Source of the DNA: Paraspadella gotoi
Taxonomy: Eukaryota; Animalia; Chaetognatha
DNA length: 64,000 nt
Direction: 5' to 3'
Assembly: GCA_051294375.1 (NCBI GenBank)
Contig: CM119263.1
Span: 24,161,657 to 24,225,656, forward strand
The translations under genes and the position numbers were made by a program. Positions 6,369 through 61,859 of the stretch are shown piece after piece (position 1 is the first letter of the stretch; every line of letters starts with the position of its first letter). Below the pieces are notes generated by a model that was not told where the DNA came from, ran no database searches, and saw only the letters and a list, made by a program, of their open reading frames with translations.

Positions 6369-7432
6369 ATGAAGTGGTGTCCTTCTCCGTATGTAATGAC
6401 TTTTTGCTCCGCAGCACACTAACATTTTTTTCTTCAAGCATCGAGGAGGATAAAAGGTGAGTCGTTCAGGCGGGATGGTCTCTTTTTTTTAATTCAGATT
6501 TTAGTCAACATCCGGGTCTTAACTTTCGGCGCTGTCGTCGACTTTCGCAAAGATTGGAAAAGAACCACATGCCATGTTTGTACGACAATGTCCGACATGT
6601 CACTTCGCCCACCCTCCCTGGCCCTTAATTTCCTTAATTTAAAAGCCGTAACCAAAGCCGACTATAAATCGTAGACCTTCCAAAGGCTGCTGAACCCGTA
6701 ATTTAGGATAATTTTTACTCCTTTATTACATTTTTCCTTTTTACGATCTGTATTGCCTCGCATTTTTTTTCGCGCCATAGACGACAGCGGTGACGTCATT
6801 GGCGCTAAACAAACATTAAAAAGCGGTTGTTTTTTGTTTTTTGTTTTTTTTTTTTTAATCTCAGTTTACCTCTGTTTTCCTTTGTTTTCATTTCTGTTTT
6901 TTCCTTTTCCCTTTTTTTCCAACTCGACGCTAAACCCCCCCCGTCCCGCTCTCCCCCCTCCTACTCCCTTCCCCCTCCTATCGCTTTACCCCTCCCCCCC
7001 ACCCACACTTCCACCTCTCCACCCTTTCCACAAATATAATCCACACCAAAAAAAAACAAAAAAAACAAATATTCGCGCCAACTCGAAAAAAAAAAAAAAA
7101 GGAAAGAGGTGGAGAGTTCGACGCTCAATTTCGGCGTTAATATGGCCATAGTCGGCGCCACCATCTTCGGCGTCATCGTGATTTTCCTGTGCTGCACCTG
7201 CATCGGCGCCTGCAGGTGCAAGAGTCCCGAGGAGGTGGAGGACACCATGAATTGGCCGCGAAACCAGAGGATCATCGAACCCTACTGTTCGATGCGAACT
7301 CCCGAGTTGGATAAGATCGAAGGGGAGAACGCTGAAGCGGAGGAGGGGGAAGTGGGCGAGGGAGGAGGAGGAGGAGGAGGAGGAGAAGAGGGGGGAGGAG
7401 AGGGAGACGGAGGGGCAGGGGAGACGAGTTGA
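6369..7432 (+). CDS. Single-pass membrane protein, paralogue/cassette 2 (TM, Cys cluster, RIIEPYCS motif, Glu/Gly-rich tail)
   Basis: Main exon about 7102/7107-7432: NFGVNMAIVGATIFGVIVIFLCCTCIGACRCKSPEEVEDTMNWPRNQRIIEPYCSMRTPELDKI, clearly homologous to cassette 1. Tentative 5' micro-exons 6369-6388 and 6439-6456 give MKWCPSPIEEDKR in consistent phase (lower confidence). Confidence 0.7.
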
Positions 7433-9842
7433 GAGAGGGAGAGGGAAAGAGGCGCCTCTTCGTGCCTCACTATTTTCTCTGTATTTATCATTCATATTTT
7501 ATATATTAGAGAGCATTATTTTTTATGTATATATATATATAAAGGATCACTTAACTTAATCGGTTTAACCGACATATTCTTTTCGTAATCAAATTTTCGA
7601 GATGTCCAACAAAACTTATCCAATCCGATCCAATTCAAACTCGGCGCCTTTTTTTTTTCATCCTCTCGTATCTTAATCGACAATCTCGAATCATAAAAAA
7701 AAAAAAGATTTATAACTTTCTATTTTAATAATTAACGAATTTGCTTCATAACATGGTTGTTCGATACTCTCACCGGCTGTCAGCTTTCAATGTCGTCTTT
7801 ATATTAACTTATTTTATTCGTAAATTCATAATATTACAAAATGTGGAGAAGCCGAGGGAAGGAGAAAGGGAAAAGAGAGAGGAGAAGGCGAAGGTGAGGT
7901 GGAGTTCGAGTGAGATCGAGTGAGATCGAGAGGGAGTGAGATTGAGAGGGAGTCAGAATGAGATGAGACTGGTTTCGCGTCGTCGGGCTTTCCTCGGGGG
8001 TCCAATTCAGATGACCAGCCGTCATCGTTCGTAGCGTTAGTATGTCAAACATTTCATCTGTGTCAATTTCACAACGATTCTTTGACTTTTTCACAATTGT
8101 CACTTTTTTCATAGTAAGATATGTTAGCTTGCTACGATATAATAATCGACCAACGCAAATTTTTTTTTTTTTTTTTTTTATTCCTACCAGCATCAAAAAT
8201 TGAAAGAAAAGGAATATAATGTTTCTTCGAAAATACAATTTTCAATTTGAGATGCTAATGTCAAAAGCGAGGGTGAAGTCTGTACGTAACAAAAGTGTCA
8301 GTTTGTTTGTTTGTTTGTTTGTTATCGTTTTGCACTCGACTTCATCTTCTCTTTTGGTGTCTTGCAATATCTCAATAATCATCCTATTTTTTTATGCTTT
8401 TAATTCGTTTGCTGCTAATTTAGTTTTTTATAACTGTTAAATTTTACATTTTTAAATATTTCAGACGTAAATTTTAGTAGTTATATCTTACTTCTTTTAA
8501 AAAATTCCGTAAACGTTTCATAAACTTTTTAAAACATAAATAATTATTTTTCGTAATTTCACAATTTTAGGCATGATTCGTCACTAAAATACAATGCAGT
8601 CATTTGAGCACAAATATTTTTTACCTACTTCTTAATCACGTTTAATTAAAATAAGAGAAAATAATAATGAGTTAGTCATTTGAGTTTTTCATCATCATAT
8701 TCACTTCCTTATTTTAAAGAAGAGGGACAAAAAAGTCAGTAATCACTAAAAGTATGACATGAGGGTCACAACTCACCTTTTTTAGAGCGAACGGGTTCTA
8801 CCTGCGTTGCCTATTTTTTTATTATTTTTTTTCTCCGCTTGTTTTTCTCATCTGGTTTATCAAATCTTTTATTTCACTACGCTGCTTCATTTATCCGCAA
8901 TTTTGTTCATGAAGGCTTGTAAGAATTGGTTAATTTATTTTCTTTTTAAAAGAAAAATCCGCAGGCTCATATCGTGAAGTAGAACCCGTTTAGAACATAT
9001 ACATCAATATATATCCAATTTATATATCTCATGACCATTATTTTTTGTAATTTCTTCTTTAATTTATCCGCGAATTTGTTCACCAAACTGCGAGTGATTT
9101 TGTTGTAAACGGGTTCAGCAGACCTGGTCGACGGAAAAAAAAAAGTATCCATGAATACCATGAAAAATACTTTTAAAAAAATTAACGATGGCATCAAAAA
9201 AAAATTTTCTAAAAGAGAACGTTCTTCCTCCATCGGAACACCAATTCTTACATGGCGTTCATATATAAATTCGTTTTTTTGTTTTTTTTTGTTTTTTTTT
9301 TAATCCGGGCAAATATACATATATTTTTATTTTGTATGTGTTCGTTTGAATACCCACATGGCTAGGGGCTTTTTAGTAAACGGCTATATCAGCATCAACC
9401 TCGCTCTCCCAACGAAATCAACATCCATAGGCCCCCTTCTTCCCCTTTTCCAATTTGGCTGCTTTGGAAAAAAAAAAACATTTTGGATATGAATCATCTT
9501 CAAGATTATATCAATACTTTATTTTTTTTGCTATAGCTAATCGGTTAACGTTTTTTTTATTGTCGCCAAAATTATAAAAGTAATCGGCGATTTCGAAATC
9601 AGAAATATCATTCGAAAATCATATGATCAACATTTTTTCTCTCTTTCTCCTTCCCCCCCCCTCACGCCCCGCAATCGTTTTACTCTTTCTCCCGCGATTC
9701 TTCTTATTTTTCCTCTTTCCCTATTTCCTCATACCGCCATCTTTCCACTCTTTTCCCGCCAATCCCCTCACCCCATCAACGATATTTCTCCCCCTACGCT
9801 CACACCCCTAAACTGCCCCCACGCCCCCAAATCGCAACCAAG

Positions 9843-12800
9843 ATGGAGAACAGAACAACGCCGGGGTCAACATAGTAAACGTGGGCGGGTTCATCATTTG
9901 CGTTATTGTCACTTTTCTTTTATGCACCTGCCTTTGTGCCTGTTGTAGGAAGAAGAGTCGAGAAGAGGTGAGCAAGGGAGAGACGGCCTTACCTTTTTTT
10001 TAAGTTTTCCTTCCTTCCTTTCCCTGAATCGCTTTCTCTCATTTTCATATTCTCTTTTCCTCTTTCGTTCTTTGCGTTTCCCAAGAGATCCCCTTTCCTT
10101 TTATACTCTTTCCCAACTCTTTTCAGCCTCCTTCCCTTTTTTTTTCTTTCCCTTTCCTTTTTCTACATACCTCCTTATCCCTTCTTCTCCCATTATGTTC
10201 CCACTGCCTTTGGTAAAGCGATAAAAGATGCTCAATTGATCGAGGAGTAAGGGCGCAAGGCGGCCGACGAAGGAATAGAGAAAGTGGAAAGTTATGGGAT
10301 GAGGAGTTGATCAAAAATAGGAAATATTGGTAGCTCAGAGATGCCTCGATTTAACATATTTGACCGCTAATTAGTACTCATAACGTTTTTGGATTTTTTT
10401 TTTCTTTTTTTCCTTTTTTTTTCTCTGTTCCTGCAATACTACGGATTTAACTCTTTTTTTTTTTAATAAATATTCTCATTTCCACATTTTTTACCATCAT
10501 TTACCGTTTTGACTCCGCGCCTCATCCGCCCATCCGTCCGACTACTTCTCCCCTTCCACCCACCACCCACCCACCCCACCACCAAGGTGGAAGACGCCAA
10601 AAATTGGACGAAGAACATGCGGATCATCGAGCCGTACTGCTCGATGCGGACGCCGGAGTTGGAGAAGATCGCGGGGATCGTAAAGAAGGGGGAGGGTGAC
10701 GAGAAAGAGGAGAAGGGGGAGAAGGAGGGAGACGAGGCACGGGGGGTGACGACAAGAAGGCGGGGGCGCCGGGGCCGGCGGCGGCGCTGCCGGCGGTGCC
10801 GCCGGCGTCGGGGCCGGCGGAGCCGGCGGAGTCGGCGCGAACGGCGGCGCCGGCGAAGGAGGTAACCAAGGGAACCAGACGCATCATGGCGCTAACCATC
10901 ATGGAAGTAACCATCATCATCATCATCATGGCAACCATCACGGACATCACGGAGGTAACTTCCTCTCACGAGAAAATGGCCGAAAAAAAAAAATGGGCGG
11001 TGTCTATCTTTTTTTTTTTTTTATGTGTTACTATTTTATTTTCCGCGAAAATATATTTGTATATAGCGAAGCGTATATCTAAACATTTTTTTTCTCTGTA
11101 ATAACTGCACTCGCGCATGACAATATTTTTTTTTAAAACTATAAATTATAATTTTTTTTAAAATATAAAGAAATTCAGCGACCGCCCGCCATGTGAGAGG
11201 AAGGATTTTGTTCAATTGTCAAAATGAAAACAAAAAAACGAAAATTAACTTTTTTTTATTTGTCTTAAAATCGTGAACGACCGAGAGGGAACGCTGGCTC
11301 TTTTCCTCGTTAAATCTCAGTTGAATGAAGAACAAATAAGTAAACAAACAAATATAAATAATAAAGAATTATTGACATAAGTGACCTTTAAAAAATATAA
11401 TCTAGTTTAATTTTAAAACCAAATATTAAATAATTACAAACCCCATTTATTAATGTGGCAGTTAATTAATTCAATATTATTCACACCTAAATTCGAAATA
11501 CATTAAGGGGAAAAATCGGCCGGATTAGAGCGAAGCCTATCGGTCGATGCACGAATTTTGTCACAAAATCGATAATCAATTTTAATCAACGAAGCATGCT
11601 TTTTTATAAAGAGTCACCGAAGAATGGCGGCTTCGTAATTAAGTGGGGTATCGCCTTACACGGGCCGAAGACCCTTGAAGCCGTTACCTGCATGGGACCG
11701 GAAAGATGAAGTGCCACAGAAGAGTAAAAAAAAACATTTTGAAGTTTAAAATTCCATTTGAAACGGGCTAGTTTCAAATTTTACTCAAAAAAATCACTCA
11801 GACGGTAAATCTTAAAATTGCAGGGAAACTAAGAATTGTGTGTTTGTCTTTTGGAAAAGAGACAACTGCATGGAAAACTATTCGACGCTTAAAAGCGTCT
11901 CAAAAAGAATTGCATTATGCAAAAATCGGATCGACGCAGAGTAGAAGAGAAAAGATGCCACATTTTGACTGCCCCTTCATCATCCCAAGAGCAGGAAATT
12001 TAAGGGGTCTTGAAGAGAAAAAAAAACAACTGAACCTGAGAAAATAATCCATTTTATTTCTTAAACTAGGCATTTCATTAAAGTCATTTTATAAAGTATA
12101 TGTATGTCTTTTAAATTCTTTTAAAGTTTTGTCTTACAGTTTTTGTAAATTCTAAATTTACGTGACATCAATAAACTTGCTCTTTTTTTTCTCCGGACTA
12201 AATTTTAAAAAACAATTTTTAGCCAAGATTTAGCAAAGATTTATATTTTAAGTTGACCATCATAAATCTCAGAAAGGAGGTGAGGGAAGTTGCTTTCTCA
12301 AGCTTCTCTGCGTCGGACTGTGCACAAATAGTAGACTTAGTTGATATGCATTTGGACAATAGTAGTTTATCTTTAATCGTTAAGGATGAAAGAATAACCT
12401 GAAAATATCGACAAAGAATAGTCTTATCCACAATGATTCTATACGAATACCCCGGCTCGATTTAGTTTTAGACAATTTTTGCTTCTTTTTGTATTAAGAC
12501 TATTTACAAAACACCGACGTTGTTTAAATCGCTCAAAAAAAATTTCAAAGGGATATTTTGAAAGCATGCATCTAAATAAATGAAACATTTCATTACGAAA
12601 ATTGAACAAAGAGCACCAATAATAACCCCCTTGCCGTCGCAAAGGTGGTCGCTGAATTTCTGACAACAAAATTTTAAAAATTTTTAAGCAAATAAAATAT
12701 AAAATAGCATAATTTAGATTACATAATTTTTTTTTTTGCATGTACACATAAAACCGATAAACGCATGAAATATGCACCAAAGAACAGTGCATCGAACGGC

Positions 12801-13133: not shown

Positions 13134-13182
<49 letters not shown>

Positions 13183-13599
13183 CCAACCCCTGTTGCCTCC
13201 CTTACCCTTTCAACAGATCATGGCGGACACCATGGGGGAGAGCATCATGAAGGCCACCACTATATTGGCTTTCATGGTGTGGGCGCCCATGACTATGGCA
13301 TACACGGATTTCACAGCTTCGAGCCGGAGCATGGCCCTGGTCATCACGGTCTACACGGTCATCACGGGGAACACGGCCATCACGGCCACCACGGCCACCA
13401 TGGCCACCACGGAGAGCACGGCCATCATGGAGATCACCACCATGGGCACGCGCACGCGCATCACGCGCATCATGGACACCACGGGCACCACGGCCATCAC
13501 GGCCACGACCATGGCCATGGGCATGGACATGGAGGTGGACATGACAAGAAGAAGCAAGGCGAACACAAGCATAAGGCGAAGGCTGGAGGCAAGAAATAA
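9843..13599 (+). CDS. Single-pass membrane protein, paralogue/cassette 3, with a Gly/Ala-rich then His/Gly-rich C-terminal tail; 5' exon not identified; two apparent 1-nt frameshifts
   Basis: Exon 9843-9967 (GEQNNAGVNIVNVGGFIICVIVTFLLCTCLCACCRKKSREE|GTGAGC). Exon 10587-10954 (VEDAKNWTKNMRIIEPYCSMRTPELEKI...NHHGHHG, donor G|GTAACT, phase 1). Exon 13217-13599 (CAACAG|AT, phase 1; (GHH)n...KAKAGGKK*). One extra G near 10737 and one near 10760 are needed to reach the Gly/His frame. AATAAA at 13650. Confidence 0.72.
13139..13179. repeat. (CT)n microsatellite just upstream of the His-rich exon acceptor
   Basis: About 20 uninterrupted CT units. Confidence 0.95.
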
Positions 13600-20284: not shown

Positions 20285-21210
20285 TGCATTTGTTCATGGA
20301 GGAAATGAGGTACCGAAACGATTAACTAAAAAAACCCTTACTTTATTTTTTTGGTATTAAAGTTAACCGTTCTCTCTCATTCGTCAGAATCATGTAGACT
20401 TTAAGTATTAAAAAAAAAATTAGATGACTCATTGAATTATTAAACCCGATTAGAATCTCTTTCTAGTCTCTGCTTCATCATGTGTGTACAAAATAACATT
20501 AAATACTTATCAAAAAAGTCATCACCTTTATGTCTGTACTTTTTGTCAGCTCTGTCAAAGTGTCAAGTCTGCCTTTAGAATAGAACAACAGATTAAATCT
20601 ACAAAAACGTAAATAATGACGTCCTGTGCATGTGTCTTTTAAGTAAACATATCAATGATTCCCTATTTGTATACTACTACTTAAAAACAACATTTGTCAA
20701 ATTAATCCACCCCTTGATACTTGAAAAAAGGCTGCATCATTACAACAATGCTGAGACAATTAATTACGTCTACTTTTTTATTTTTTCAAATTGTTTTAGA
20801 TAAGCCAGTGGATTTATTGGCGGAGCTAGAATTTATTTTATTTTTATTTTTCAGTGTATTTTAATTTTGAATTAATATTCTCTGCAATGGTTTTCTGGTT
20901 TCAGAAATTTATTTGTGGCGATAAAGTTTATTATTTACCGGCCTCTTAATGTTGCACTATAGTAAAACTGATTAAATAATAACTCCTTGATCAAAGCAAA
21001 ATTGTTTTATTTGCATTAAGATGAACTGGTGTGCGCGATAAACAATTGCAGAAAAAAGGCTACCTTAGCAAAACTTTTAAACCGACTGAAGCATAAGGCC
21101 AAGATTATTTGTTGAAAAAAGAAATTAAGCTAAACCTTAACTTTTTTTATAAACGAGGGAGAAAAAGAGAAAAAAAGCCTCTTCAAAAAAAATAATTAAT
21201 TAATAACTCT

Positions 21211-24100
21211 TTAATTTTCGATGTTCAATTGTTCATTTTCTTCTCCGGCGTAATTTACATGACGAAAAATGGTGGCATCTGTCGTCGATTGTGGAAACGA
21301 ACTATTCGACCCAAGGCCGCACTGAACAAACAATTGCCGTTCGTTCTGTCTAACGCAAATCTCGATTTCCTTCCTACGGGCGGCGTCCATCGTAGGTTGT
21401 CCATTTTGTTGGTCGTAAATGCTGATTAAGGGTAAAAAAAAATTTTAATTAGCGTCCGTGTTTGAGTCGAAGATATTTTTTCTACACTACATACTTACAA
21501 TATTTTTGTGAAACATTTATAGCAGTCGTCGCCGATTTCCAGCCCGAATCTCAGTCCGCATTGGCCCAAGTGCGATTCTGTCCCGTCGCAGTTGATTTCG
21601 ATGTAGGGATAGAAGACGACGCTGAATTGTGCAATCTGACCAAAGTCAACATCAATATTAGTCTTAATCGATCAATCATTCAATCAATCAATCAATTCTT
21701 GACAAACATCCCGATTTTTACCTTAAAATCCTTCCACCCTTCCTTGTCGTATTCCGTCAGGTTTTCTGCCTTCTGCGCCGCCTCTCGGTTGTAAATGAAA
21801 GCGAACTGATCGAATTCTTTGGCGCCTACTTCGGCAAAGTCGAGACCCACGACGCCGTCGTCGACGAATGCGGCGTCGTTGGCGCCGAGTTGACGACAGA
21901 CGACGGCGGCGACGGCGGCGGCGTCGGAATTCGGGTGGAGGCAGATGGAGGAGAAGTTGGAGCGGCGCCCGAGGGAGACTTGAGCGAAGCCGGCGACGAC
22001 GCCGTCGAAGGACGTGGAGTTGCCGAAGAGGGACGTCGCCGGGGGAGCGAGGCGTACGTCGACGATCACCTGGGAGAAAGTATACGTATATTTTAGATAT
22101 GCATATTTTGAGAATGGTAAACATTTTATAAAACTAACTAAACTTTTTTTTTTATTAATGTTTCATATGTAACAATTTTTCGATTAAAAATACATTCATC
22201 TAAACACTACTTTAAGCGATCCGGTGATCAGTCAATCAGTCAATCAGTCAATCATTCAATTTACGTCCGGATAAAGAGGCTTTGTGTTCACGAGGGCGAG
22301 ACTACAAACGGCGACGAATATTCCGACGACCCCGACGACGCTGATGACGAGGGCGGCGGCCATCTTGGCTCTCATGGCGTCGCAACGCGGCCCGTCCGGC
22401 GTCTCCTCCACCAGGATGTGCGACTTTTCCGAGGGCAACGACGCCAGAATCTCCGCCGGCGTCGTCCCTTCCGTCTCCGACAGCTGCGTGGAGCCGGTGG
22501 CGTCCTTATTGGCGGCCTGTTTGTTGGCGGTTTCCTTGTCGGGCGTTTTGCCCGATTTGAGCGACTTCATTGAGATGTTTTCGCCTTCTTCGGCGCCTTC
22601 CTCGTCGACGGGTTCTTCCACAGCGGGCGCGTCCTCGATCAATTCCACCGGCGCCGCGTCATCGGACAGCGCCCGAAATTCGGCGCCAAGACCCGCGCCA
22701 AGACGGGACGCCGCGGCGACCGGCAACGCAGCCAAACCCCGCGCAGCGGCGCCGCAGAGCCACAGCCACGCGGAGATGAGCGGCTGCGAGAATCCGGCCG
22801 TCCACCTGTTGTCGGTGAAGAAGAGGCAGCTGCCCCAGAAGAGGTTGATCGGAACGAAGATCCAGAGATTGGCGTAAAGAGAATCGTCTGCTCCGTTGAG
22901 CGTCAATTCGGACTCCAATACTTTGGAACTGATCAACTGCTTCTCCAGGATGAAGGCCAAGAACCAGAAGAGACCCTTGACGCCGATGAAGCTGCAGAAG
23001 CGTCTCGTCCAGTCGTGCTCGGGTCGAGAGAAGATCAGCGCCAAGATGCCCGTCATCGCCGTTCCCAGCATGACGGGCACGAGCAGCGTGGAGAGGCAGA
23101 CGCCGCAGAAGCAGGCCATGCGGCAGAAGGCCGACAGCACCGCCAGCTCCGAGAGGCAGAAGAAGAAGACGGAGAAGGCGGAGGAGAGGCTGTGATAATT
23201 CGGCGAAGAGAAGACGTTCATCGTCGCGCAGCCGCGTCGCTCGTAAACGAAGTTGGCCACCGCGGCGCTGATTCCCACGCAGGAGCTCAGCACCGAGAGG
23301 CGCTGCAGCGGCGCCATGTTTTCGTAGCCTTCGTTGAAGGCGTTGGCGGATGCGAAGACGGTCTGCGTCACGATCTGCGGCACCGAGGAAAAGAACGCCG
23401 GTGCCAGTTTGGCCAGCGATGCCACGCGGAAGCTTCTTAAGGCGTCGGCTTCGGACTCGGGCGTGCCCAGGGCCGTAAACCAGAGGGCGTGGCAATAGAG
23501 GAGATTGGGCGCAGAGAAGAAGAGGCCGGTGGCGGCGACGGCGATGCGCCACTCGGGCGCGAGATGGCGCCAACGTAAGGTGGTGACGACGACGACGAGG
23601 ATGACCTGTAGTGATTTGAGATTTTCGGCAGAAATAGACAAGAGTCAAAGAGGCAATGATTATTACAACATAAACCACATTGATGATAACAACTACAACA
23701 TCTGTAACAAAACCTGGGAAAGGACGCCGGCGAGGAGCCAAAACCACGTGACCAGAAAATGGAAGCCGCGAAAATAAGGCGCCGAATCGCCGAACATGGA
23801 GTCGTTGCCGAACCCGAGCCCGTAAGCGATCTGACCGCCCAGCCCGGACGGTTCACCGCCCTGGCGCCGCGGGAATCGATCGTCCTTGTAGGCCAGGCGC
23901 CGCAATGCAGCGCCGAGTACGACATCGACGCCAAAGTCAAGGAGAAAGAAGGAGAAGGAAAAGACGACGACGAGAGTGCGAAGGATCGGCGTCGGTGGGC
24001 GCGGCGTTGGCGGAACCGGCGATGTTGGAACCGTCGCCGTTGGACTTGCAGGAGCCTTCGGACTCGCCTGCGCCGTTGGACTCGCCGGCGCTGTCGTCAT
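21211..24100 (-). CDS. XK-related (Xkr scramblase-like) multi-pass membrane protein fused to a C-terminal SRCR domain, paralogue A (about 807 aa)
   Basis: Exons 24100-23714, 23605-22265, 22069-21722, 21635-21499 and 21421-21211; all GT-AG, phases 0,0,0,2, 2424 nt. XK hallmarks: DFGVD in TM1, KLAPAFFSSVPQIVTQ (ESxPQxxxQ-like), SVLSSCVGIS. SRCR hallmarks: VRL...GFAQV...SIC...AAVVCRQLG...CDGTESHLGQC...LFVQC. Confidence 0.85.
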
Positions 24101-24701
24101 CGTCCTCGAAGATATGACGCCGTCTTGGTTCTGCTACTTTAGAGAATGGCGCTGCAGTCGAACTCTAGCGTCGCCAATCTCCTTGCAAAATGAGATTTAA
24201 TGCAAGAGACCGTCTCGCTCTCTCTTTATCTCAAAATTCCGGACAAAAATAATTTGTTCCTCGTCGATTCCTTTTTGCTTTTTTTTCCGTTTTCGTTTAT
24301 ATCGACTGACGAAGGAGTCGAGGTGCAATTCGCAAAAACGAAAGACACGCAACAAAGACAGGGAGATGCGACCCAACGATCCCGGTCAGGAGATCGGATA
24401 TGGTAGAATTTAAAGAGAGACACGAGATGGGACAATAAGATGGGAAAATCATTCGCGATTTTCAAGTACAAAAATGTAGGAGGACATGGAAGCAGCAGTT
24501 AGTCTATTCTGCGTGATTCTGATTAGATTAATTGAGAAATAATAAGTTTTCTGAAAACTAGTTAATTCGTCTTCAGTTTTATCTGTGTATGCAGAGAAGA
24601 TGAAATATTGGTAAATCCAAGGAAGGTTCTCAAAACTGATCATGCTCCCTCCATTTTTCATCTTTGCCCTCTCTCTCTCTTATTATTCTCTCGGATAGTC
24701 G

Positions 24702-24752
<51 letters not shown>

Positions 24753-26766
24753 TGTCGTGGATTACTGGCTAAAGACTATGACGACGTCTTGGTCGAATTT
24801 ATAGGGAGGTATTGCAATGTAAGCAAGCGCACCTATCTCTTCGATAACGATTCTGTCGCATCAAGCATCAAGCTTGGGCTCAAGCATTTCCCATTTGGAT
24901 TCTATCTTTCTATTTTCTCAGCTTTTAGTATTTCATTTTTTTTTCCCTCAATTATTTTTTGTCCCAATGAATGAACGTCAGAACGTTTTAATATCTTTTA
25001 TATCATTTGCTTTCGCCCAAAGGCTCTTTTCCTCACTCAAAATATCAAAGAAAAGAAGAAGGCGTGTATTTGGAAAATCCAACAATCTTTTATTACGGCA
25101 ACAAAATCTGCGAGATCGATGCTTTGGTCGTATTAGGAATAGGATAAGGATATAACGATGACTTTCGTTATTTTTTTATTAGAAAAGTCGGTTAAGGGTC
25201 TGATCTCGTCATTGAAAAATAGTTTTTTTTTTCTTAAAACGAAAAAAAATCAAAAGCAGATTGTTTAATACTGTCGATATTTGACACAAGTGCAGTATTG
25301 GGGTATTCGATGCAAACTGGTATAAACAAGCCAAGGAAAATTAGAAGTAGTTATTATTTGAATTTTCGGGCCGCGATTTTTTTGCGTGTCGACGGGACGA
25401 AATGAATGCCTCGTTATAGTTCGGACGCTGCCGAGACTCAATGGAACAATTTGCGGTCGTTCGGTCGGTCAAGGACCGATAGCCGAAACTATGGAACCGT
25501 TAATTATTTTTTTTTATATATATTCAATAACACCATGTTCCTTTTCGTTAAACTAGATTCAGTCCGATATTGGCAAGTGAAAAATTAGGTTCAACGCAAT
25601 CGTACATAAAAATTGAGTAAAAGCAACGTAACAATATTCTGGGACAATGAGTGTACCAATGAAAAGAAGCGCTAGAAAAAACAAAAATCATGCAACTGCG
25701 TCCTTAATATTAATACGTATTAAAAAGCCAAAATTAAAAAGGCAGCGACGGCTTCAGAGTAAAAAAGCGAGCTTTATAATTATAAAAAAAATTTTTTTTT
25801 TAATTTAATATACTATTTGACAATTAGCAAAAGAGAAAAGGAGGAGCACGTAAGTCTTTTTTTTTCCTTTAGAATTTTCTTATTCCCTTAATTTCATGCG
25901 TTTTAAAACATTCTGGTTAGAATCTTTTTTTTTTTTTTTGGTAAAATTGAAAAACCGTTAAGGGGCAATATTAGCGGCATTATCATGCAAGAAAAACCCA
26001 CCAATTGAATTTGTTTCAAGTAAATAATAGGAAGCATCACATAGAATACATTTTAGAACATAGTAGTAAAAGCTGGAAATTACACTTAAATCGTAATCCA
26101 CCCCAAACGTTTGATCCAAACATACTGGTGTAAATTTCGGTTTTTTGTTGTTTTTTTTTTTTTTTTTTTTTTTAAGTGAAAGCACCGTATATATATAACA
26201 TCGAAATATATATGGTGAATAATGCTAAGAGAGGCAAGTTCGTTATTATATGTGTTCGGATTGACTCATGCAACTTCGAAGGGTCAACGCGAGACTACGT
26301 CTCATATTTGGACAATTTTTATGACAATAAAAACGATTCCACTCGAAATTAATTATCGATTTCAATTTTTCATGTTCGGAAAAAATCCGAAAACTTGACT
26401 CGTCCACCATTGGAACTTTTGATTTCGACGTCGAACTGTGACTCAGACAATAGAACAACTTAAAAGAACAAGGGAGGGAAAGATCAACATTCTGTGTTTT
26501 TGTTTATTTTTGTTTCCCCAAAACAAAAAAAAACCGCGAAAAAAAAACCGTCGAGAGAAAAACTTGAGCGTACAACTCTTTGATGCGATCCGCAGATTCA
26601 AATCTTTTAAACGAACTTTGTCATTTGTCATTTAATATTACTTGGCTTTTCGTCATTATTTTTAATCGGACGCTGATTGTAACGAAGAACGAGAAAGATT
26701 TTGCCGTCTCTCCTTCCGTCGCTTCGCGGGCGCGCTGTCCTCGCGAACGGACAGCGCCACCTCTCT

Positions 26767-29700
26767 TCAGTTTGGCGTGCAGCGGACGAACAGTTGGCGT
26801 TCGTTCTGCCAGACGCAAATTTTGAGTTCTTGCCGCCGCGCGAAGTCCATGTCAGGCTGCCCGTTCTGCTGGTCGTATATTCTGAAGTTTGGGAAAAAAT
26901 TGGAAGTGAGTACAGTCTACAGATGACTGTGAAGAAGAACTTAGCACAATGAAAGCTTTTTGATTTTTAACGTTTTAAGATTTTTTTTTTAAAATGGATC
27001 GGCGAAGTGTCGTCCACATCAGAACGAATGATTGTTCGCTAATTAGTTTCCCGGAGGCAATTTTATTCATACTTCAGTAAAAAAATTACAAAATTATAAT
27101 TATAATAATTTAACATTAATTAAATATTTATATATAAATATATTGTTGCGACTCACATGGTCTTCTCGAAACACTTGAAGCATTCGTCGCTCGTCTCGAG
27201 TCCCACGCGGAAGCCACACTGGTTCAGCTGAGGCTCGTGTCCGTCACAGATCACTTGGAGATAGGGAGCGATGTTCACCTCAGCTTGGGCAGCCTGGCGT
27301 GAGAGTAAAGAGAACGGCTTTACGGAGAATTTTTTTTAAAAAGTCTTTTTGGTTATTCTGTCGTATGACGACTAATAACTATGTTGGTCATTTTCAGTTA
27401 TTGTCGGGGATATTGTTTAATTAAAAAATAAACTAAGCTTAAAAAATATATTACATAGTCTCTCCATTTTTAAAAGAATGTTGAAACAATTTCATAAAAA
27501 AAATATTATCGATGCTTGTTTTTCATATAAAATAAGGCCCGCTCACTGTCACCTCAAACTTTTTTTCATAAACCGCAACTGGGTGTCTGATTCATTTGTT
27601 ATTCCAATCAAAAAACAATGACGACGTCCTTAATTAGCGTCAAGTCTCAGGAAGAAACTTTCGTGAAGATTCATCATCGGACTTTCATTTATTTTAATAT
27701 TTAATTAATCTATTAATTGGAAATTAAAACATTTTATTACGTGTCTAGATTCATTTATTATTCATTGATGAAAAACAAAGACAACAACAACAACGACGAC
27801 GACGAAAACAATAAAAACAATAAGAACAACCCCTTCCATCCATTCCCTTCACCTTCAACTGTTTCATCTCGGCAATATCAGCTTCCGTCTCGTTCTCGTT
27901 GGCCGGATCGAAGACTCGTCTGTAGTTGAGCTCGTGGATCGCAGAGAGTTCTATTCCCTCCGCGCCGTCGACGGAGGCGTTGTAGTAGGCGTGTCCGACG
28001 GCGGCGTCGTCGACGTCGGGTCGGGCGCCGAGCTGGCGACACACGACGGCGGCGACGCGGTCGGCGTCGGATTTCGGATGGAGGCACAGCGTCGTCCAGT
28101 TGGTCCGCGGCCCGACCGCCACTTGGACGAAACCGGCGCGGGATCCGGCGCCGAAATGAGTCGGCGCCGATTTGTTGTGGTAACCTTGGAAACCGGGGTT
28201 GGGCGGGACGAGGCGCACGCGGATGTCGATCTTGAGAGTTGGGGGGGAAAAGGAGCGGGGAGGGGGATTAGGTGAGTGACGGGTGAGGTTTCAAATGTTA
28301 TAATAAAAAAGTATAATATAAAAATAGTAGCGAAAAGTTTTTTAAAAAGAGTTTATTAAAAATATAAAAGTAATAAATAAAAATTAAAAAAAGTATAATA
28401 AAAAATTCTTACGAGAAAGATGTTGGAGGCTATCAAAGTTTTGTTCTTTATTATTTGTTTACAATTTAAATATCCGGTTTAAACAGTAAATTTTTTACGA
28501 TTTCATGGAAACAAACGAAGGATTTTGAATCGGAAACAAAGAATTGACTCAGGTCCAAATCTTAGTTGTTCTCATTCAAATTACAATGTATTCCTTTAAC
28601 AAAGTTTGGAAATGTTTTCGTCAACGATTTTTTATTAGTATAAGGACATGTTTCGACTCTTCATTTCGAGTCTTCATCAGCATATATATACTAATAAAAA
28701 ATCGTTGACGAAAACATTTCCAAACTTTGTTAAATCTCTATACTCAACGAAGCCGAAAGGATTAACACAATGTATTCCTTGTAATTTTTTTTTCTCCCTT
28801 CCTCCCTTTCTTCCTCCCTTCCTCCCTTTTTCCTCCCATCCCACCTCATCATCTCTTCCCCCCAACCAAACCTCACCTTGGGTATCATAGGGTCGGACGG
28901 TCTCGCCGTCGGCACGGTGATCACGAGGAGGTACAGCGTCAAGAGTCCCACGAACGACGCAGCCAGCGCCGCCGCCATTTGCCGGCGTCGTCCGTCCCAA
29001 ACGCAATCGATGCCGGGCAACATCATCATGAGCTGCGACTGCATGGACGGCGAGGCTGCGATGCCGCGGGGCGATCCCGCTTCCTCGTCCTCGGTGGCGC
29101 CGGGGGAGACTGTCTGCGACGCCGGGGACGCCGGGCTGACGGGACTGGCGCCAGCCACCGGAGATTTCGAACCTTCTTTGGAATCTTGCTTCTCCGGTTT
29201 GGGTTTCGGTTTCTCCGTCTCCTTCTCCTTTGATTCTTTCCTCTCCTTCTTCTCCTTCCCTTCCTTCGCTTCCTTCTCCGCCTTGGCCCCGGCCTGCGCC
29301 TTCTTCTCCTTTTCTTCTCCCGGTTTCTCCGTCGCCTGTTCTCCTTTCGCCTCTTTGTTCTCCTTTCCGTTTTTAGCTTCCTTTCCGTTCTTCCCTTCCT
29401 TACCTTTCTTACCCGGTTTCCCTTCCTTTCCTTCCTTACCTTCTTTTTCTTCCTTGCTTTCCTTTCCTTCCTTTCCTTCCTTTTCTTTCTTTCCTTCCTT
29501 TTCTTTCTTTCCCTCCTTTTCCGTCTTGGTTTCCTTCTCGTCCTTTTCCTTCTCTTCCTTACTCTCCTTACTTTCCTTTCCTTTCTTACCTTCCTTACCC
29601 TCCTGACCTTCTTTCCCCGCCGCCGCCGTCGCCCCCGCCGCCGTCCCCGCCGCCTCCGGTTCAGACGATTTAGCCTTCTTCTTTCCTTTCCCGGTCTTGG

Positions 29701-31908
29701 CAGCGGCGCCGCTGCCGGTGGCGCCACCGCTCTCGGCGCCGGCCCCCGCCGTCTCCTCAGGCATCTTGACTTCCTGGACGGACGGGGCCTTTGAAGGGGC
29801 CTTTGACGGGACTTTCGACCCACCGACGTCTTGAGTCGAGTCGGAGATCTTGACGGATTTGAGGGAAATCTCGATTTCCGTCTCGTAGGTCTTGTCCTCC
29901 AACTTGACGGGGATATCCTCGACGAGCATCTCGATCTCTGCGGCGAAGGCAGCGCCCGCCTTGACCACGGGCCCCACCCTGGACGCTTTCAGCTTATTGG
30001 CGACCAAGTTGAGGAAAGGAAAGAGAACCTTTCGCACGACGGGGTCGCAGTAGGCCGCAGTCCAGCTGTTGTCCGTGAAGAAGAGCAGGCTGCCCCAGGT
30101 GAGGTTGATTGGGACGAGAACCCACAGGTTGTAGTAGAGGATGTCGGCGCTGCCGTTCTGGATGAGCTCGTCTCCTAGGGGAACGTAGGTCATCAGCTGT
30201 TGTTCCAGGATGACCCCGAGGAACCAGTACATGCTTTTGACGGCGATAAATGGGCAAAATCTGTTGGACCAGTCGTGCTCCGGCCGGATGATCAGCAACA
30301 GGCCCAGCATGCCGATCGAGGTGAGGATCATGATCGGCAGCAGCCAGGTGCTGAGGCAGACGCCGCAGAATCCAGCGAAGCGGGCGTAGGCGCCCAACAC
30401 GGCCATCTCGGAGAGCACGAAGATGACGATCGATATCGCCGAAGAGAGGGAGTGGCAGTTGGGGGAGATCATCACTCCGCGCCGCTCGTAGAGATAATTG
30501 GCGATGCCGACGGCGATGGCCCAGGCCGAGCCGATCACCGAGCATCGCGACAGGTGCGAGAGAGAGTCGTAGCCTTCGTTGAAGGCATTGACGCCGCCCA
30601 TCGTCAGCTGCGTGCAGAACTGGGGAAAGCTCTCGATGCCGACTTGGGCGAGTTTGACGAGGGACGCGAATTGCATAGCGCGCGCCACCGTCACCGCCTT
30701 TGAAAGAGAGAGTAGAGGGGGTTGAGAATAGAGATAAATGGGGGTTAGAGTTTATACTTGAGAAAATTACAAAGATAACAATTTAATTTTTAAGTTAAAC
30801 TCTATTCAATGAAAAAAACTTTAGGCTGAGCCGCCCAACCTGATTTTAAAGTCCCTCAACTTACACGAGGCAAAACATTAAACTTTTATAATTTTGTAAA
30901 TAATAATTATAAATAGACATTGTAATTGTCTTTCTTATCGTTCCGTTTGAAATGAGAACGGCAAACAATTTGTTTTTAAGTTTACAAACTCACACACTCT
31001 CACAATTGATATTTCACTACTAATTTTTGCGCTGATGAAGGCTTGCATCAAAATCAAAAACAGGTCTAGTTCTAAAAAATAAAAATAATTGTTTTGACGT
31101 TTTGATAATAATCATTACCAAACTACTCTTGTAGTTTGAAGTGACATTTGTTTCGACTTATCTTCGGAGCCCCACAGTCAGTGATAGTGCCCTCTGTGGG
31201 TAAACTTAGCCCACGCGGTAAATAGAAGCCAGATTTTGGACGCCTCGCTATGAAGTCTCCTTCTACCTTTGTTCCCTCTGGGCTTCCTCTCTCTCTCATT
31301 CATTCCCTCCCTACCTTTCTCTCGGTTTCCATTGCTGCCTCTCACTCCTGATTACATTTATTTAACAACAATCTAGATTCTAGATTATTTAAAGTTACTG
31401 AAACATAACTCGGTCTTGTAATAATTCTTAAATTAAGGTAACTACACATTAAACTTAAACTTGGTCGAACCTTGGCTTCCGTGTCGCCGCAAAGAAAGAC
31501 GAACCATAGGACGTAGCAATAGATCAGATTAGGCCCCAGAAGGAACAGGGACCCAACCATGATGCCCAGACGCCACTCGATGCTCATGTACTCTTGCTTG
31601 GGCAGGACCACGCCCACACAGACGGCCTGTCCCACTCCCGCCACGATGATCCAGAAGAAAGTCCAAAAGAAGTGACGCCCGCGATAAAATGATGCGGAGT
31701 CGCCGAACATGGGATCGTCGTCGAAGGAGAGAGAGTAGCCGACTTGAGAGAAGAATCCCGAGTCCCGGACGTCGGCGCCCGCGCGGCGAGGCCACTGGGA
31801 GTTCGGGAACGCCATCTCGCGGAGTTCCTTGCCCAGGATGAAGTCGAGTCCGACGTCGAAGTGGAAGAAGATCACGGTGACCGCGATCAAACCGATTCTC
31901 ATCAACAT
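26767..31908 (-). CDS. XK-related (Xkr scramblase-like) multi-pass membrane protein fused to a C-terminal SRCR domain, paralogue B (about 962 aa)
   Basis: GCCGCC-ATG at 31908. Exons 31908-31471, 30697-28877, 28230-27853, 27293-27157 and 26881-26767; phases 0,0,0,2, 2889 nt. Motifs: DVGLD, KLAQVGIESFPQFCTQL, long K/E/G linker, TM MAAALAASFVGLLTLYLLVITV, SRCR VRLV...WTTLC...AAVVCRQLG...CDGHEPQLNQC...LFVRC. Colinear with paralogue A, including a 137-nt exon of the same length. Confidence 0.87.
31020..31070 (+). mobile_element. Degenerate copy of the Penelope-like hammerhead-bearing terminal repeat, in intron 1 of paralogue B
   Basis: TTTTTGCGCTGATGAAGGCTTGCATC resembles the arms at 59.0 and 63.0 kb; the GAAAC/GUC half is decayed. 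Confidence 0.4.
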
Positions 31909-47965: not shown

Positions 47966-52058
<4,093 letters not shown>

Positions 52059-55138: not shown

Positions 55139-56230
55139 TTACTCTTCCTCGAACATATCGTCATCCTCGTCTTCACCGTCCCCGGTGGCAGAGCCCGATT
55201 CGACAGCGGCGTTGCGCGACATCGCGCGCGCCGTGAAAAAGAGGATGCGCCGCATCTTGGCGTTGTGGAAGAAGTAGTTGAAAGACCAGAGACAACCGTC
55301 CTCGGAGAAGGGGTCTCCGCCGGAGAGGTCGGGGTTGTAGCTATAGATCTCGCAATTCTTGAGGTCGATCTCCTCGTCGATGGCCGACCAAAGTTGATGC
55401 TGCAGATCGACGTGTACTTGGCCTGAGGATGCAAGAAATGTTGGTCGCGGTTGCAAGAAATAAAAGTAGGTAAAGTTTAGAGAAAAAAATACGCGTATAG
55501 GTTTGCTTTTACCTTGGCCGGACGTCTGAAAGAGACAAGAGTCGATATTATTCGTGACCCAATCCAAGCTCGGTTCGCGGGAAAAGTCTTCACCTGAGAA
55601 TACCAAGAAAATAAATTCTAAGGTCTGGACTATAAAGTTTTAGTTAAAATAAGAAGCAATTAAACTTCACCTTTCGTCATGCTAAAGTCGTAGTCCGGAG
55701 CGAAGGCGGCGTTCAATGTCTGAGTCAAATAGAAAAGCGTCTTTCGCGATATCGTGTCACTGAGAAAAAACAGTCATTATCAATAACAAAAAAATATAGG
55801 AGATGAGAAGTATAATAAAATATGCTTCTGACTGGTGACGAATCAGGAAATAATCAGGAAGAAATTTAAACTAACTTCGAAAAAGGATTTTTCTCATCGT
55901 CGATAGACGAGCCGGAATTAAACCGCTTGCGACGGGACGGTGAGCCAGCAAACCAAGACTCGGGTGGGGACAGCGCTTGCAAATCGTCCCGGGTCGAGCC
56001 CGGTTCCATTGAGAGCATAGCGTTCAACATCTTCTTGTCGTTAGCGGTGCTCTTGCACGAATAGGATTCGATCTTTCCCAGCATCAAACAGTCGCCTGAC
56101 GAATGAAATCATTTTTTTTACTTTTTTAATACCATTCTAACAAGGGCGAAACGAAACGAAACTTACCCGACTTCAAGGCGTCAAGCGAGTTGTTGACGGC
56201 TTTAAGCCTTTCCGAGTCCAAAAACTTCAT
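55139..56230 (-). CDS. MAF1: Repressor of RNA polymerase III transcription Maf1, about 245 aa
   Basis: Exons 56230-56167, 56095-55876, 55759-55671, 55593-55513 and 55422-55139 (738 nt, phases consistent). Motifs [89 protein letters not shown], and an acidic tail. Confidence 0.97.
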
Positions 56231-57182: not shown

Positions 57183-60100
57183 TTAAGAAAATCTTTGTGC
57201 GGAAAAGTTTCTTGAGAGTTTGCGTTTATTGAGCGGACAAATCGGGCGGTAATTGTTGCAGATCTTCGGGCCATCTTCTTCGCCGGTCGCGTTAAGCTGG
57301 CGCAAAATATCCATTTGCTCCTGAAAGAATGGACCCAATATCTCACCAATCGTAAGTTAAATCTTAACATAAAACGACCTTGATTCCAAAACTTATCCGG
57401 CTTATTTTTACATTCGCCGACCGGGATTTTGCGGTCGGTTATGTTTTTTCGCTTCTTATGAGCGACATATAGAAATCTCGCTATTAAAAAATAAAAATAA
57501 GAATACTGGTAAGGGTAGAAAAACTTTTTATTACAAATCCCTAACCACCTCTAACCCTAACCACTAAGGCGGAACAAAGTAAAAACTAAGAGTTCTGTAA
57601 TATAAATAACGTTAGAACATCCCTGTAGGATAACGAAATTTAAAACAAATTTAGGATTTGATGTATAGTTAATAACATAGAAGCATTTAAAGTTTACCCG
57701 AATCCGTTTTTAAAAAATCTGAATTTTGAAAACAAAATACGATAAAATAAAATAAAATAAAATAAAATAAAATAAATACGATAGAGCTTGAAAACATAAA
57801 TAAAAAATATTACTACAAGATTTCAAAATTTTTATGTTTTATTGGTTAAAATTATAAAAAAAACTATAAAAATTATAGTACGATGATGATGATGATGATT
57901 TTATGAGTTTTTCCATCATTTGACCCACTTATCATCGAAATATTGAAAAACGCATTATACTTTGTGTATAAAGAATCCGTTCTTAAAAAAGAAAAATTTA
58001 AAAAAAAAATGTTTTCATNNNNNNNNNNGTAGAAAAACTTTTTAATACAAATCCCTAACCACCTCTAACCCTAACCACTAAGGTGGAACAAAGTAAAAAC
58101 TAAGTTCTGTAATATAAATAACGTTAGAACATCCCTGTGGGAGCTTCAATGTGATACTATGCTTCACTAGTTAAAAAAGTGATAGTATATTCATTAAGTA
58201 TGATGGACAAATGAATTTTAGATAACAGAACTCTTCATGATAAAAAGTGAATATTTAGCCCGCCCTACTACACACCCCTAATCCCTAACCAACCCTAATA
58301 CCTAACCAATAAGGCGTAGTAAAATTTCTAAATTTAACTTTAATTAAAATTCTAAAAGTGAGGAACGAACAACATTATATTAATGAAACATTTATGTAAT
58401 TAAAAAATTTATAATAAACTTTACAATTTACCAGTAGCCATATTATACTAGTACTAAACCAATAAATGTTAAAATTTTAAAAAGGTTTTTTCTAAAGATT
58501 TTTTTGCAGATTTAGATTCGTCATAAAAAGTTGATAAAAGAAATATATAACTCTTTTAAAAAATTCCTTCATTAAGTGGGTCAAAAATTAGAAAATGCTA
58601 TATTTTAAGGCTGAAAATTAACTTTTTACATATTAAATAGTTTTTTTAATTTTTAACCCACTTAATGAAAGAATTTTTAAAAATGATTTATATTTTCTTT
58701 TATTAACTTTTGACGAGGAATTCAAATCTGCAATCAGAATTAAGAAAAGCCTATTTTGAAATTTTTCGATTTTATAAGTTAGTACTATATATAAATATAG
58801 CCTACTGCGAAAATTAAAAAACATAAAAATTAATTTTTTTTACAATTATTGTTTACTGATGGTATGTTGTTCATAATTGACTTTTAGAATTTTCGTATGT
58901 AACTTTCACTACGCCTTCTAACCAACTTAACCCAATTGCTAACCGTTTAAAAAGTATAATATAAAAATTTTGTTTTTCCTTTCCTTTTTTTTCTTTATTT
59001 GTTTACGTACAAGGAGTTTTATTAAGAAACAAATTTCGGACATGTTTCGGCTTCAATGTAAACCTTCATCAGCGAAAACGAATTGATTTGTGAAACAAAT
59101 ATTTTCACAAATATTGAAGTTTGAAGAAAAGGAGAGAGAAAGTGTGTAAAAATATTTGTTTCACAAATCTGTTTTGCACTGATGAAAGCTTACATTGAAG
59201 CTTAAACGTGTCCAAAATTTATGATTCTTTATAAAACTCGTATGTAAACAATTCATTTTCTACCTCAAACATAAAAATAGCAATTAAAATGAATTAAAAA
59301 AAATATTATTTATTATAAAATTATGAAATTTATATTGTTATTTATATTATATACTGAACAAAAAAAATGTATATTATTGCGCAAACTGAGGCTCGACGCT
59401 AGAGGGAAAACAAAATTAAATGGATTATCAAAGCACCGACCGTGGTAGCTTAAGATGGTTGCGGACGTCGAATAGTAAAGTTACCCACTTATTCTTTCCT
59501 TAACTTCCACGAAGGTAAGAGGCAAACCTTACCTGAGAGAAGGCGATCGGCTTAACAAAGTTGATCCATGTCACCGACTCGTGACACGGGGCGTGGTGAG
59601 CGATCCAAAATAAGTGAAGAATTCTGGTGCCGCGCCAGGAATTAACGACGCAGGATTTACACCTCCGATTGAGGTCAAATCCATCCAACTTCCTCTGAGA
59701 CATGACGTAAGTCAAGGTTAGTTATAGTATTGAATAGCATTTGGCCAAGTTGTTGCGAATCCGAAATTCGCCTCCTGGATAGCAGTCAAACCCATTTGGG
59801 ACGAACTAAGTATTCGTTTACCAACCGTGAGTTACGTGTTCGATTCCTCAGGATCAGGCTCGTTAAAGTGTGATGGTACCGGTATAAACACGCCATTGCA
59901 GGTCCAAAAACCTGAGCGTAACCTGTCGAGAGATTTTCTCACACCCTGGGCATCACAGACACCCTCCCCGTTCCTACAAAGCTTTAATTGTCACTTCTAC
60001 TTCTCAGCATCTCTTCGCTCACTTGAGCTTGCATCCCTCGAGCAAAATGTCGAAAAGCGGTTTTAGCCCCTTATGCTCAGCGCGACGTTTATGAAGGCCC

Positions 60101-60791: not shown

Positions 60792-61592
60792 CGTCGACCC
60801 TCCTAATTTAGCGACTCGAGCGGAATGCATGGGACGGAGAAATAAATGTGAATTAAAAATACTCAGTTGGTAATAGTTTTATTTTGGATTAGTTTTTATT
60901 TTAATTTTCCTGGGAAGGGGATGAAGTATTCGTATAATATCATCGCTCGCAAATTTAGAATAACTTGATTTCGTTTTAAAACTAATAGCTGCAAATTATT
61001 GTATGCAGACGGACCGATTAAAAACAATTTAATAATAATAATGCCGGATGAGAGAGTTGAAAACAATAGCATATAAATATCATATACGCGTGATGAAATC
61101 GAACAAATGAAATACAGATAGTAAAAAGTGTGATGGTTCAGGAACATTTTCGACAACGACGTTAATTAACGCTCTGATTTTATTTTAATCAACGGCACAA
61201 CAAACGAACAAACACTATATACATGATTGGTACGACCTCAAAAAGAATTTAAATAGGAATGAGTTTTAATTTATGAGGAATAAGAGTTCGAGGAAAAAGA
61301 GAGGAACCGGGACGTTACGAGTTCCAGACGAAAACGGATGAGATTCAATGACATTTATTACTACCACTTCACTGGAGTTCCCACGAACCTCGTCAAAAAC
61401 CAGAACGTCATTAAACAACACGAGTCAATTTATTTCCTTATTAAGCAAGTTAAAAATGTCGGATAAAACATCGTCAACCAAGCTAAAAATTCTACGCTAT
61501 TTAAAATTGAAATAAAAAGAATTTATCTTCATTGATGATAATAAATGACAACGTCTAGGGGAAGGAGGCCGGGTCGCGACCCGCTTTCGAAA

Positions 61593-61859
61593 TCAAGCTC
61601 TCGATTCGCCGTCCGGCGGTTGCACGTATTTCCTTTTCTTCTTCGGCCTGGTTCCCTTTGCAGGATCGATCGGCGATTCTGAATCGCGGACGAATGAGTG
61701 GAGCCAGTAGTCGGGCAGCAGCTTTTGCACGAGACCGTCGAAAAGCTCCTCGAGCTTCTTGCCCGCCTCCCCGACCTCCGACGAAGGTTTGTTGAATTTG
61801 CGCAGTTGGTGAAGATGAGGCCGACCTCGTGAAGGAAGTCCTCGTCGTATCGTAAGCGC
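61593..61859 (-). CDS. Terminal exon of a protein with a C-terminal bromodomain (partial; two apparent 1-nt deletions)
   Basis: Acceptor ACCCAG| at 61860/61859. Reconstructed AYDTxEDFLHEVGLIFTNCAKFNKPSSEVGEAGKKLEELFDGLVQKLLP...PKKKRK...* matches the bromodomain B/C helices with the conserved Asn, followed by an NLS-like KKKRK. Confidence 0.75.
   Translation of the reverse strand, partial: ALTIRRGLPSRGRPHLHQLRKFNKPSSEVGEAGKKLEELFDGLVQKLLPDYWLHSFVRDSESPIDPAKGTRPKKKRKYVQPPDGESRA

Follow-up and report, generated by a model that had tools for sequence, protein, structure and literature searches.

The stretch of 64,000 nucleotides analysed here, hereafter the window, comes from the chaetognath Paraspadella gotoi (assembly GCA_051294375.1, contig CM119263.1, positions 24,161,657 to 24,225,656 of the forward strand; positions below are counted from its first letter). 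It carries on its minus strand two neighbouring genes, A and B, whose products join an XK-like multi-pass membrane domain, through a linker and one more membrane helix, to a scavenger receptor cysteine-rich (SRCR)-like domain. An earlier note on this DNA had described the two genes as intact five-exon paralogues, and translation of the minus strand of the window confirmed this: neither gene has an internal stop, gene A (31908-26767) encodes a product of 962 amino acids and gene B (24100-21211) one of 807. All eight introns of the two genes have GT..AG borders. Introns 2 to 4 are positionally equivalent in A and B, and intron 1 is placed differently. The features of the two genes are given below, where TM stands for transmembrane helix, IH for the re-entrant helices of the XK fold, and P numbers for related proteins.

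31471..31908, minus strand: A exon 1, with XK-like TM1 (D18, D22), TM2 and IH1/IH2; its intron position is shared with fragments P0005-P0007.
28877..30697, minus strand: A exon 2, a single open frame from TM3 (K161, Q164, E168, P171, Q172) to the last core helix, followed by the conserved sequon N327, a Lys/Glu-rich linker and the distal helix.
28910..28975, minus strand: A distal (ninth) membrane helix, residues 721-742, predicted from hydropathy, with RRRQ just before it; its likely orientation is taken from the relatives.
27853..28230, minus strand: A exon 3, first half of the SRCR-like domain (C802, C817); PF00530 match at E 0.0012.
27157..27293, minus strand: A exon 4, with C-x-G-x-E-x-x-L-x-x-C (C895, C905), C917 and C920; splices observed on both sides.
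26767..26881, minus strand: A exon 5, coding part, with C947, C959 and the stop; splice 26881/27157 observed.
25084..26766, minus strand: probable long 3' untranslated region of A, with AATAAA at 26508, 25180 and 25094 and an inferred end.
23714..24100, minus strand: B exon 1, with a Pro/Thr-rich N-terminus, TM1 (D55, D59) and the start of TM2; contig cover at 23870-24140.
22265..23605, minus strand: B exon 2, a single open frame with XK-like helices (K195, S202 replacing Glu, P205, Q206), a shorter linker and the distal helix (22360-22292); splice to exon 3 observed.
21722..22069, minus strand: B exon 3, first half of the SRCR-like domain (C619, C634), joined to exon 2; PF00530 match at E 0.075.
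21499..21635, minus strand: B exon 4, with C708, C718, C730 and C733; splice to exon 5 observed.
21211..21421, minus strand: B exon 5, coding part, with C760, C772, a short tail and the stop; splice 21421/21499 observed.

The two products are 47% identical in the membrane domain, 30% in the alignable part of the linker and 53% in the ectodomain. Where residues are identical, their codons have the same third base just 35 times out of 100 and 24 times out of 51. This low agreement indicates that the duplication is old and that both domains have been held by selection. All the N-glycosylation sequons previously listed are present (NKS772, NWT797, NAS837 and NET866 in A; NST593, NFS614 and NLT679 in B), and B carries one further, NSS777.

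Evidence that the two domains are transcribed together comes from contigs of one public run (X1), presumed to be of RNA origin, that were aligned to 20800-28340 of the window. Contigs join across four of the six complete introns of this interval (B2, B4, A3 and A4); B1 and B3 are not among the joints of this run. The observed B2 splice connects the exon encoding the XK helices, the linker and the distal helix to the SRCR exon. In A, one contig diverges from the genome at 28234, with 596 additional upstream letters, which is the break point predicted for the splice of exon 2 to exon 3 given four shared letters, and this indirectly supports the join. Hence, the claim that the XK and SRCR parts share one transcript holds by direct observation for B and indirectly, by this contig break, for A. 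Downstream in A, one contig continues unbroken to 26184 and further cover extends to about 25084. Run X1 gives no contig cover at 24328-25083, between A and B, nor in parts of B exon 2, gaps that prove nothing. A joint between 23885 and 27998 (22 letters, TT..CG) was dismissed as a chance match. Two T>C differences between the run and the window in A exon 3, at 27932 and 27935, are probably alleles.

The relationship of the membrane domain to the XK family emerges through its relatives. In the ESM Atlas, the look-alikes of B exon 2 and of P0001, a protein 62% identical to A, are XK-related clusters at 0.91-0.92, plus one unnamed cluster, and share 205-211 of 256 features; the recognition value of B (2095) is too low for a high score to count as strong evidence. 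Searching 1.84 billion proteins with a profile built from A, B and P0001 yielded 60 at E<=0.001, with relatives found down to E 1e-27. PF09815 matches 28 of the 55 scanned, 12 of the 55 above the cut-off, which is passed by 4 of the 15 full fusions. A 25-row family profile (A7) searched against 177,635 PDB sequences returned at E<=10 only XKR8 (E 0.01; range 130-246) and XKR4 (E 2.7; ranges 112-140 and 302-416). It aligns K161, Q164, E168, P171 and Q172 of A to R134, E137, E141, P144 and Q145 of XKR8, and the TM1 motif D-x-G-x-D to D125/D129 of XKR4.

Several of these positions matter for function. Scrambling by Xkr8 in cells requires D26, D30, K134, E137 and E141 (PMC8500837). The acidic triad D26/D30/E141 is complete in gene A (D18, D22, E168) and incomplete in gene B, where D55 and D59 are kept and Ser202 stands at the E141 position. 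Of the motifs reported earlier, DxxxD (D18/D22 and D55/D59) and K...SxPQ occur in both proteins, and B has Ser for Glu. Among 52 TM3 motif matches, near-duplicate cluster members included, the equivalent of E141 is kept in 51, B being the exception, and the basic residue in 48. A, B, P0001 and those relatives whose sequence covers TM1 all retain its two aspartates. The B-like fragment P0023 retains the Glu that B lost, which weakens the idea of a conserved pair of active and inactive copies. The aligned and conserved scrambling residues suggest that the first repeat is XK-like and that the lipid path is intact in A. On the sequence evidence the membrane domain is distantly related to XK; support is strong for the first repeat and weak for the second, where it comes from two Pfam alignments that run through the repeat. 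A collagen match in the linker of A was dismissed as low complexity.

The C-terminal domain was scanned with PF00530 over exon 3, i.e. the unspliced first half of the domain, and scored 19.6 bits in A and 13.8 bits in B (cut-off 26.1). A profile of this exon gave 11 matches in the PDB, all of them chains of CD163, CD5L, PIT54, neurotrypsin or LOXL2. Both products have the SRCR motifs W/F-x-x-[LI]C, VVCRQLG and, from exon 4, C-x-G-x-E-x-x-L-x-x-C. They have eight ectodomain cysteines in common, which we read as the six of group A plus one inserted pair, with a presumed pairing and numbering. Group A SRCR domains have six conserved cysteines and those of group B eight (PMC10855680). Four cysteines are invariant in 17 of 17 rows (A, B and 15 relatives), and only 1 of 10 relatives matches PF00530, at E 0.15. 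These results support a divergent SRCR-like domain: the SRCR assignment of the earlier note stands by the profile matches and the cysteine motifs, at scores below the Pfam cut-off.

The layout is shared by a family. We examined 67 relatives from ENA or JGI records (P0002-P0062 and P0070-P0075), with P0001 counted apart. In all 15 relatives of at least 500 amino acids, a single reading frame runs through the XK domain, the linker, the distal helix and a region with the SRCR-type cysteine motif; the shorter relatives all lack this motif. With each other these 15 proteins share 39-40% identity, and with A and B about 20%. Their membrane domain aligns with that of the window proteins from TM2 to the last core helix (hhalign 99.9%), and their ectodomain profile matches A and B (hhalign 96.8%, E 2e-10). 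The ectodomain match scores 22.6 and 25.5 bits, against shuffle maxima of 6.1 and 5.4, and is reached by 0 of 329 and 0 of 303 reported shuffles (500 in each run). The divergence of the membrane domain correlates with that of the ectodomain (r 0.88 over 17 rows and 0.77 when A and B are left out; reached in 0 of 5000 permutations), which is consistent with one old fusion. On these comparisons, the XK-linker-helix-SRCR fusion is real, conserved, and extends beyond the genome of P. gotoi.

Relatives differ mostly in what follows the SRCR-like domain and in the completeness of their ends. Most of the 15 have a second ectodomain module, for which the best 44 of 59 PDB matches are weak ones to C-type lectin folds (E 0.02-0.45). 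P0071 terminates in an EGF domain, and in P0012, P0016, P0033, P0072 and P0074 the lectin-like domain is followed by further C-terminal, cysteine-rich sequence that matches no Pfam family. Some proteins depart from the uniform layout: P0001 (664 amino acids) stops without distal helix or SRCR domain, and P0008, P0009, P0044 and P0054 are predicted proteins lacking the ectodomain. P0022 stops after the distal helix, at the same splice position. P0010, P0012, P0014, P0016, P0068 and P0070-P0074 start just before TM2, without the TM1 aspartates, and several open in intron-like sequence. This probably reflects a missed first exon, because P0031, P0034 and P0037 hold both TM1 and TM2; a natural loss of TM1 in the long relatives is possible instead. 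P0044, P0054, P0051, P0049 and P0062 form a more distant XK-like group in which TM1 is present and the predicted proteins have no ectodomain, possibly an unfused sister family. Two scans of metagenome contigs for relatives returned no locus.

Averaged hydropathy peaks at A residues 12, 89, 130, 207, 242, 272, 302 and 342, with a polar TM3 near 160-182. This fits the first XK repeat, and the second has four hydrophobic helices and, at the place expected for IH3, a loop of 9 residues. The share of Lys and Arg over 17 rows is 18% in the TM4-5 loop, 23% after TM6 and 15% after the last core helix, against 4% in the TM5-6 loop and 8% in the last core loop. Around the distal helix of the 15 relatives, 69 Lys or Arg precede it and 36 follow. 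An N-x-S stands in the last core loop of 22 of 24 rows, whereas 24 of the remaining 172 Asn are part of such a motif; the row count drops three distant or misaligned rows, and becomes 24 of 27 when they are included. Instead of carrying a glycan, this conserved N-x-S might cap a helix. We favour nine predicted spans, eight of them in the core, with the N-terminus and the linker cytoplasmic and the ninth helix leading to an SRCR-like domain outside, because of the charge bias, the conserved sequon and the conserved cysteines in cysteine-rich domains. The extracellular location proposed in the earlier note is thus upheld for the family by inference, and the charge bias is absent in A and B themselves. 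The known XKR fold has eight transmembrane and three re-entrant helices, with cytosolic ends (PMC12334663), whereas the nine spans and outside C-terminus predicted for A and B would imply a remodelled second repeat.

How the helices of this repeat correspond to those of XKRs can be approached through the Pfam alignments of P0017 and P0024, in which the last core helix ends at position 300-304 of the 337 in the profile. By our offset estimate this is near the end of XK TM7, in which case the seventh helix would derive from IH3 and the distal helix from a TM8 that was displaced and inverted; alternatively, IH3 was lost and a helix added. The warning given earlier that the distal helix resembles the last XK helix is therefore partly borne out: the Pfam register allows a displaced TM8, and charge and sequon favour an outside C-terminus. 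A pair formed by a TM5 Glu and a seventh-helix Lys is kept in 18 of 20 rows, both residues being lost in P0053. The pair does not settle the assignment, because the R214 cluster of XKR8 includes both Y270 and D295 (PMC8500837).

The nearest known systems are XKR8 (PDB 7DCE/8XEJ), XKR4 (9BOJ), XKR9, XK and CED-8 of Caenorhabditis elegans (PF09815), with which the family shares the TM1 D-x-x-x-D, the TM3 K/R...E-S/T-x-P-Q, TM4 and the order of helices in the first repeat. It differs from them by its remodelled second repeat and fused ectodomain, and from XKR8 by having the TM5 Glu/seventh-helix Lys pair where XKR8 has R214-D295. XKR4, XKR8, XKR9 and CED-8 have a caspase site in a cytoplasmic terminus, whereas a scan for the canonical motif D-x-x-D|G/S/A/N found no caspase-type site in any of the 17 family linkers. 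The complexes XKR8-basigin and XK-Kell also combine an XK core with one extra membrane helix bearing a glycosylated ectodomain, in the case of Kell with the type II orientation inferred here. In the A/B family, in contrast, helix and ectodomain belong to the same chain, and the ectodomain is SRCR-like, with lectin-like or EGF domains in relatives, instead of Ig or M13 peptidase. Class A scavenger receptors (SR-A1, MARCO), CD163, CD5L and LOXL2 (PF00530) share with A and B motifs and a C-terminal SRCR-type domain after a membrane helix. Unlike them, A and B lack a collagen or coiled-coil stalk, contain long insertions and are attached to a multi-pass XK domain; they have eight cysteines, read as six canonical ones and an extra pair, and their relatives only four. 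The earlier note knew of no XK-SRCR fusion, and we found no XK protein fused to an SRCR or lectin domain in the parts of the literature searched, a search that InterPro and CDART architectures lie outside. In the available text of PMC8396242, XK-related, SRCR and C-type lectin terms are treated separately. A survey of SRCR proteins in 29 animals (PMC10855680) does not use 'XK-related' in the main text consulted, its supplementary domain tables being outside this check. The architecture is apparently undescribed so far.

What might such a protein do? Our preferred reading, held tentatively and at somewhat less than even confidence, is that proteins of the A/B type are lipid scramblases governed by their own ectodomain and not by caspase cleavage. 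It is favoured because the residues of the lipid path are conserved, a canonical caspase-type site is absent from all 17 linkers, and variation lies in the recognition modules. Scrambling would proceed via the first repeat (TM1-TM4), whose acidic residues are kept in A and nearly all relatives. Speculatively, a microbial, matrix or neighbouring-cell ligand would bind the ectodomain and either cluster the proteins or shift the ninth helix off the core, resulting in local exposure of phosphatidylserine at the contact. The differing SRCR, lectin-like and EGF ectodomains might then set different ligands, and B may be a weaker or regulatory copy. A more specific proposal is that the family forms a class of receptor-operated scramblases, with the second repeat rewired, the C-terminus flipped outside (possibly by turning IH3 into a spanning helix), interchangeable SRCR, C-type-lectin-like or EGF modules, and ligand-triggered, caspase-free exposure of phosphatidylserine in living cells; we regard it as doubtful.

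A number of results weigh against an ectodomain-controlled scramblase, or against the homologies on which it builds. By themselves, A and B have no PF09815 match in the Pfam scan and retrieve no XKR chain from the PDB in sequence searches. The second-repeat profiles (A9, A10) also found no XKR chain there, and across the PDB searches with B exon 2, A2, A5, A9 and A10 the matches fell on charged linkers or weak SRCR motifs. The two halves of the domain show no detectable internal repeat. AlphaFold2 models of B exon 2 alone and of P0001 1-424 (5-row alignment) are unreliable, with a mean predicted local distance difference test (pLDDT) of 43.5 and 43.2. With these models Foldseek gave nothing at E<=0.001 and VIA-align only generic helical bundles (Z<=7.3). 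The monomer and Foldseek check that had been proposed is hence uninformative, and searches with models at pLDDT around 43 are no evidence either way on the XK fold. In all, the XK-like domain that had been claimed stands for the first repeat, through transitive homology and the Atlas look-alikes; it is weak for the second, and was not confirmed by fold. Of the scrambling residues, B has Ser at the E141 position, and the E137 position is Gln in A and Pro in B (it is Ala in XKR4). On the ectodomain side, none of the 15 relatives has a cysteine matching C817, which makes their SRCR-like domain a degenerate one that perhaps binds no ligand. The charge bias at the distal helix is absent in A and B (3 vs 4 and 3 vs 2 in the 20 residues before and after), and B is one of the two exceptions lacking the last-core-loop sequon. 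The linker varies from 86 to 369 residues over 17 rows and could hardly act as a rigid coupling element unless the ninth helix lies against the core. By our estimate, only about two canonical caspase-type sites would be expected by chance in 17 linkers. Moreover, their absence does not require another trigger, because purified Xkr4 and CED-8 scramble uncleaved (PMC12334663).

The main rival, which we find unlikely, is a built-in accessory subunit. In this case the ninth helix and the ectodomain replace the single-pass partner (basigin for XKR8, Kell for XK) and serve the folding, traffic or anchoring of a scramblase whose switch lies inside the cell, e.g. linker phosphorylation or a cytoplasmic partner. 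XKR8 indeed depends on basigin, which is packed against helix 9 in the second repeat (PMC8500837), and the second repeat is the remodelled part of A and B. Kell, which is disulfide-linked to XK, is a type II single-pass glycoprotein with a C-terminal ectodomain (PMC11669894), the orientation inferred here, and long variable linkers fit tethering better than signal transfer. Yet one Ig domain of basigin is dispensable for chaperoning (PMC8500837), and this family keeps and elaborates SRCR-, lectin- and EGF-type domains, which points to recognition. It is rather improbable, in turn, that A and B are receptors or adhesion proteins that no longer scramble, their XK domain being a scaffold that signals to, or docks, a cytoplasmic partner. 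In favour of this, neither TM3 glutamate is left in B, solved XKRs offer no recognisable counterpart of the second repeat, and XKR1 binds VPS13A via a conserved cytosolic pocket (bioRxiv 10.64898/2026.01.07.698282). This sits poorly with the near-universal E141 equivalent and basic residue of TM3 (51 and 48 of 52) and with the TM1 aspartates kept even in B and P0001. In addition, neutralising changes in the conserved triad of Xkr4 (D125/D129/E313) cost, singly, only 1.3-2.5-fold activity (PMC12334663), so even B may scramble.

Two further alternatives concern structure. Under the ordinary eight-span XK topology, the seventh hydrophobic helix would be the re-entrant IH3 and the distal helix TM8, so that the linker would be extracellular and the SRCR-like domain cytoplasmic. 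A His-Pro or Tyr-Pro ending, presumably similar to the end of XK TM8, is common among the distal helices, and the last core helix of P0017 and P0024 ends near TM7 by the offset estimate given above. We nevertheless consider it very improbable: cysteine-conserved SRCR-, lectin- and EGF-type domains with several sequons would then be cytoplasmic, the basic cluster after the last core helix would lie outside, and the sequon conserved in 22 of 24 rows would lie inside. A gene-model artefact, with separate XK and SRCR genes wrongly joined, is largely refuted and deserves hardly any credence. The A splice from exon 2 to exon 3 has no direct contig join and P0001, 62% identical to A, ends before the distal helix; against this, the corresponding splice of B is observed, both domains are in one frame in 15 relatives, and P0022 stops precisely at that splice position.

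The role of the C-terminal tail in the XK family is debated (PMC12334663; bioRxiv 10.64898/2026.01.07.698282) and its switching in living cells is unsettled. Natural XK proteins whose tail continues into a ninth helix and a recognition domain would offer a direct test of gating by an outside signal or by clustering, and a ready chassis for a ligand-controlled scramblase. They would add an unrecognised type of receptor to invertebrate recognition systems and provide a natural case of topology change within the XK fold. Annotation misses such proteins because both domains lie below Pfam cut-offs.

Elsewhere in the window, three related exons on the plus strand (2086-2594, 7146-7456 and 10521-10938) have a common W-x(4)-MRIIEPYCS motif, and those at 2086-2594 and 7146-7456 encode a membrane helix followed by a cysteine cluster. 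They are possibly a small tandem family of single-pass proteins. A His/Gly-rich reading frame at 13181-13570 (plus strand) ends in a basic tail and may be metal-binding or structural. The exon at 51411-52020 (plus strand) encodes a homeobox that we take to be of the Msx/msh class, a mark of animal DNA. On the minus strand, the exons at 55140-56057 resemble Maf1, and among those at 60050-60818 and 61569-61864 there are similarities to an alpha carbonic anhydrase and to the final part of a bromodomain protein.

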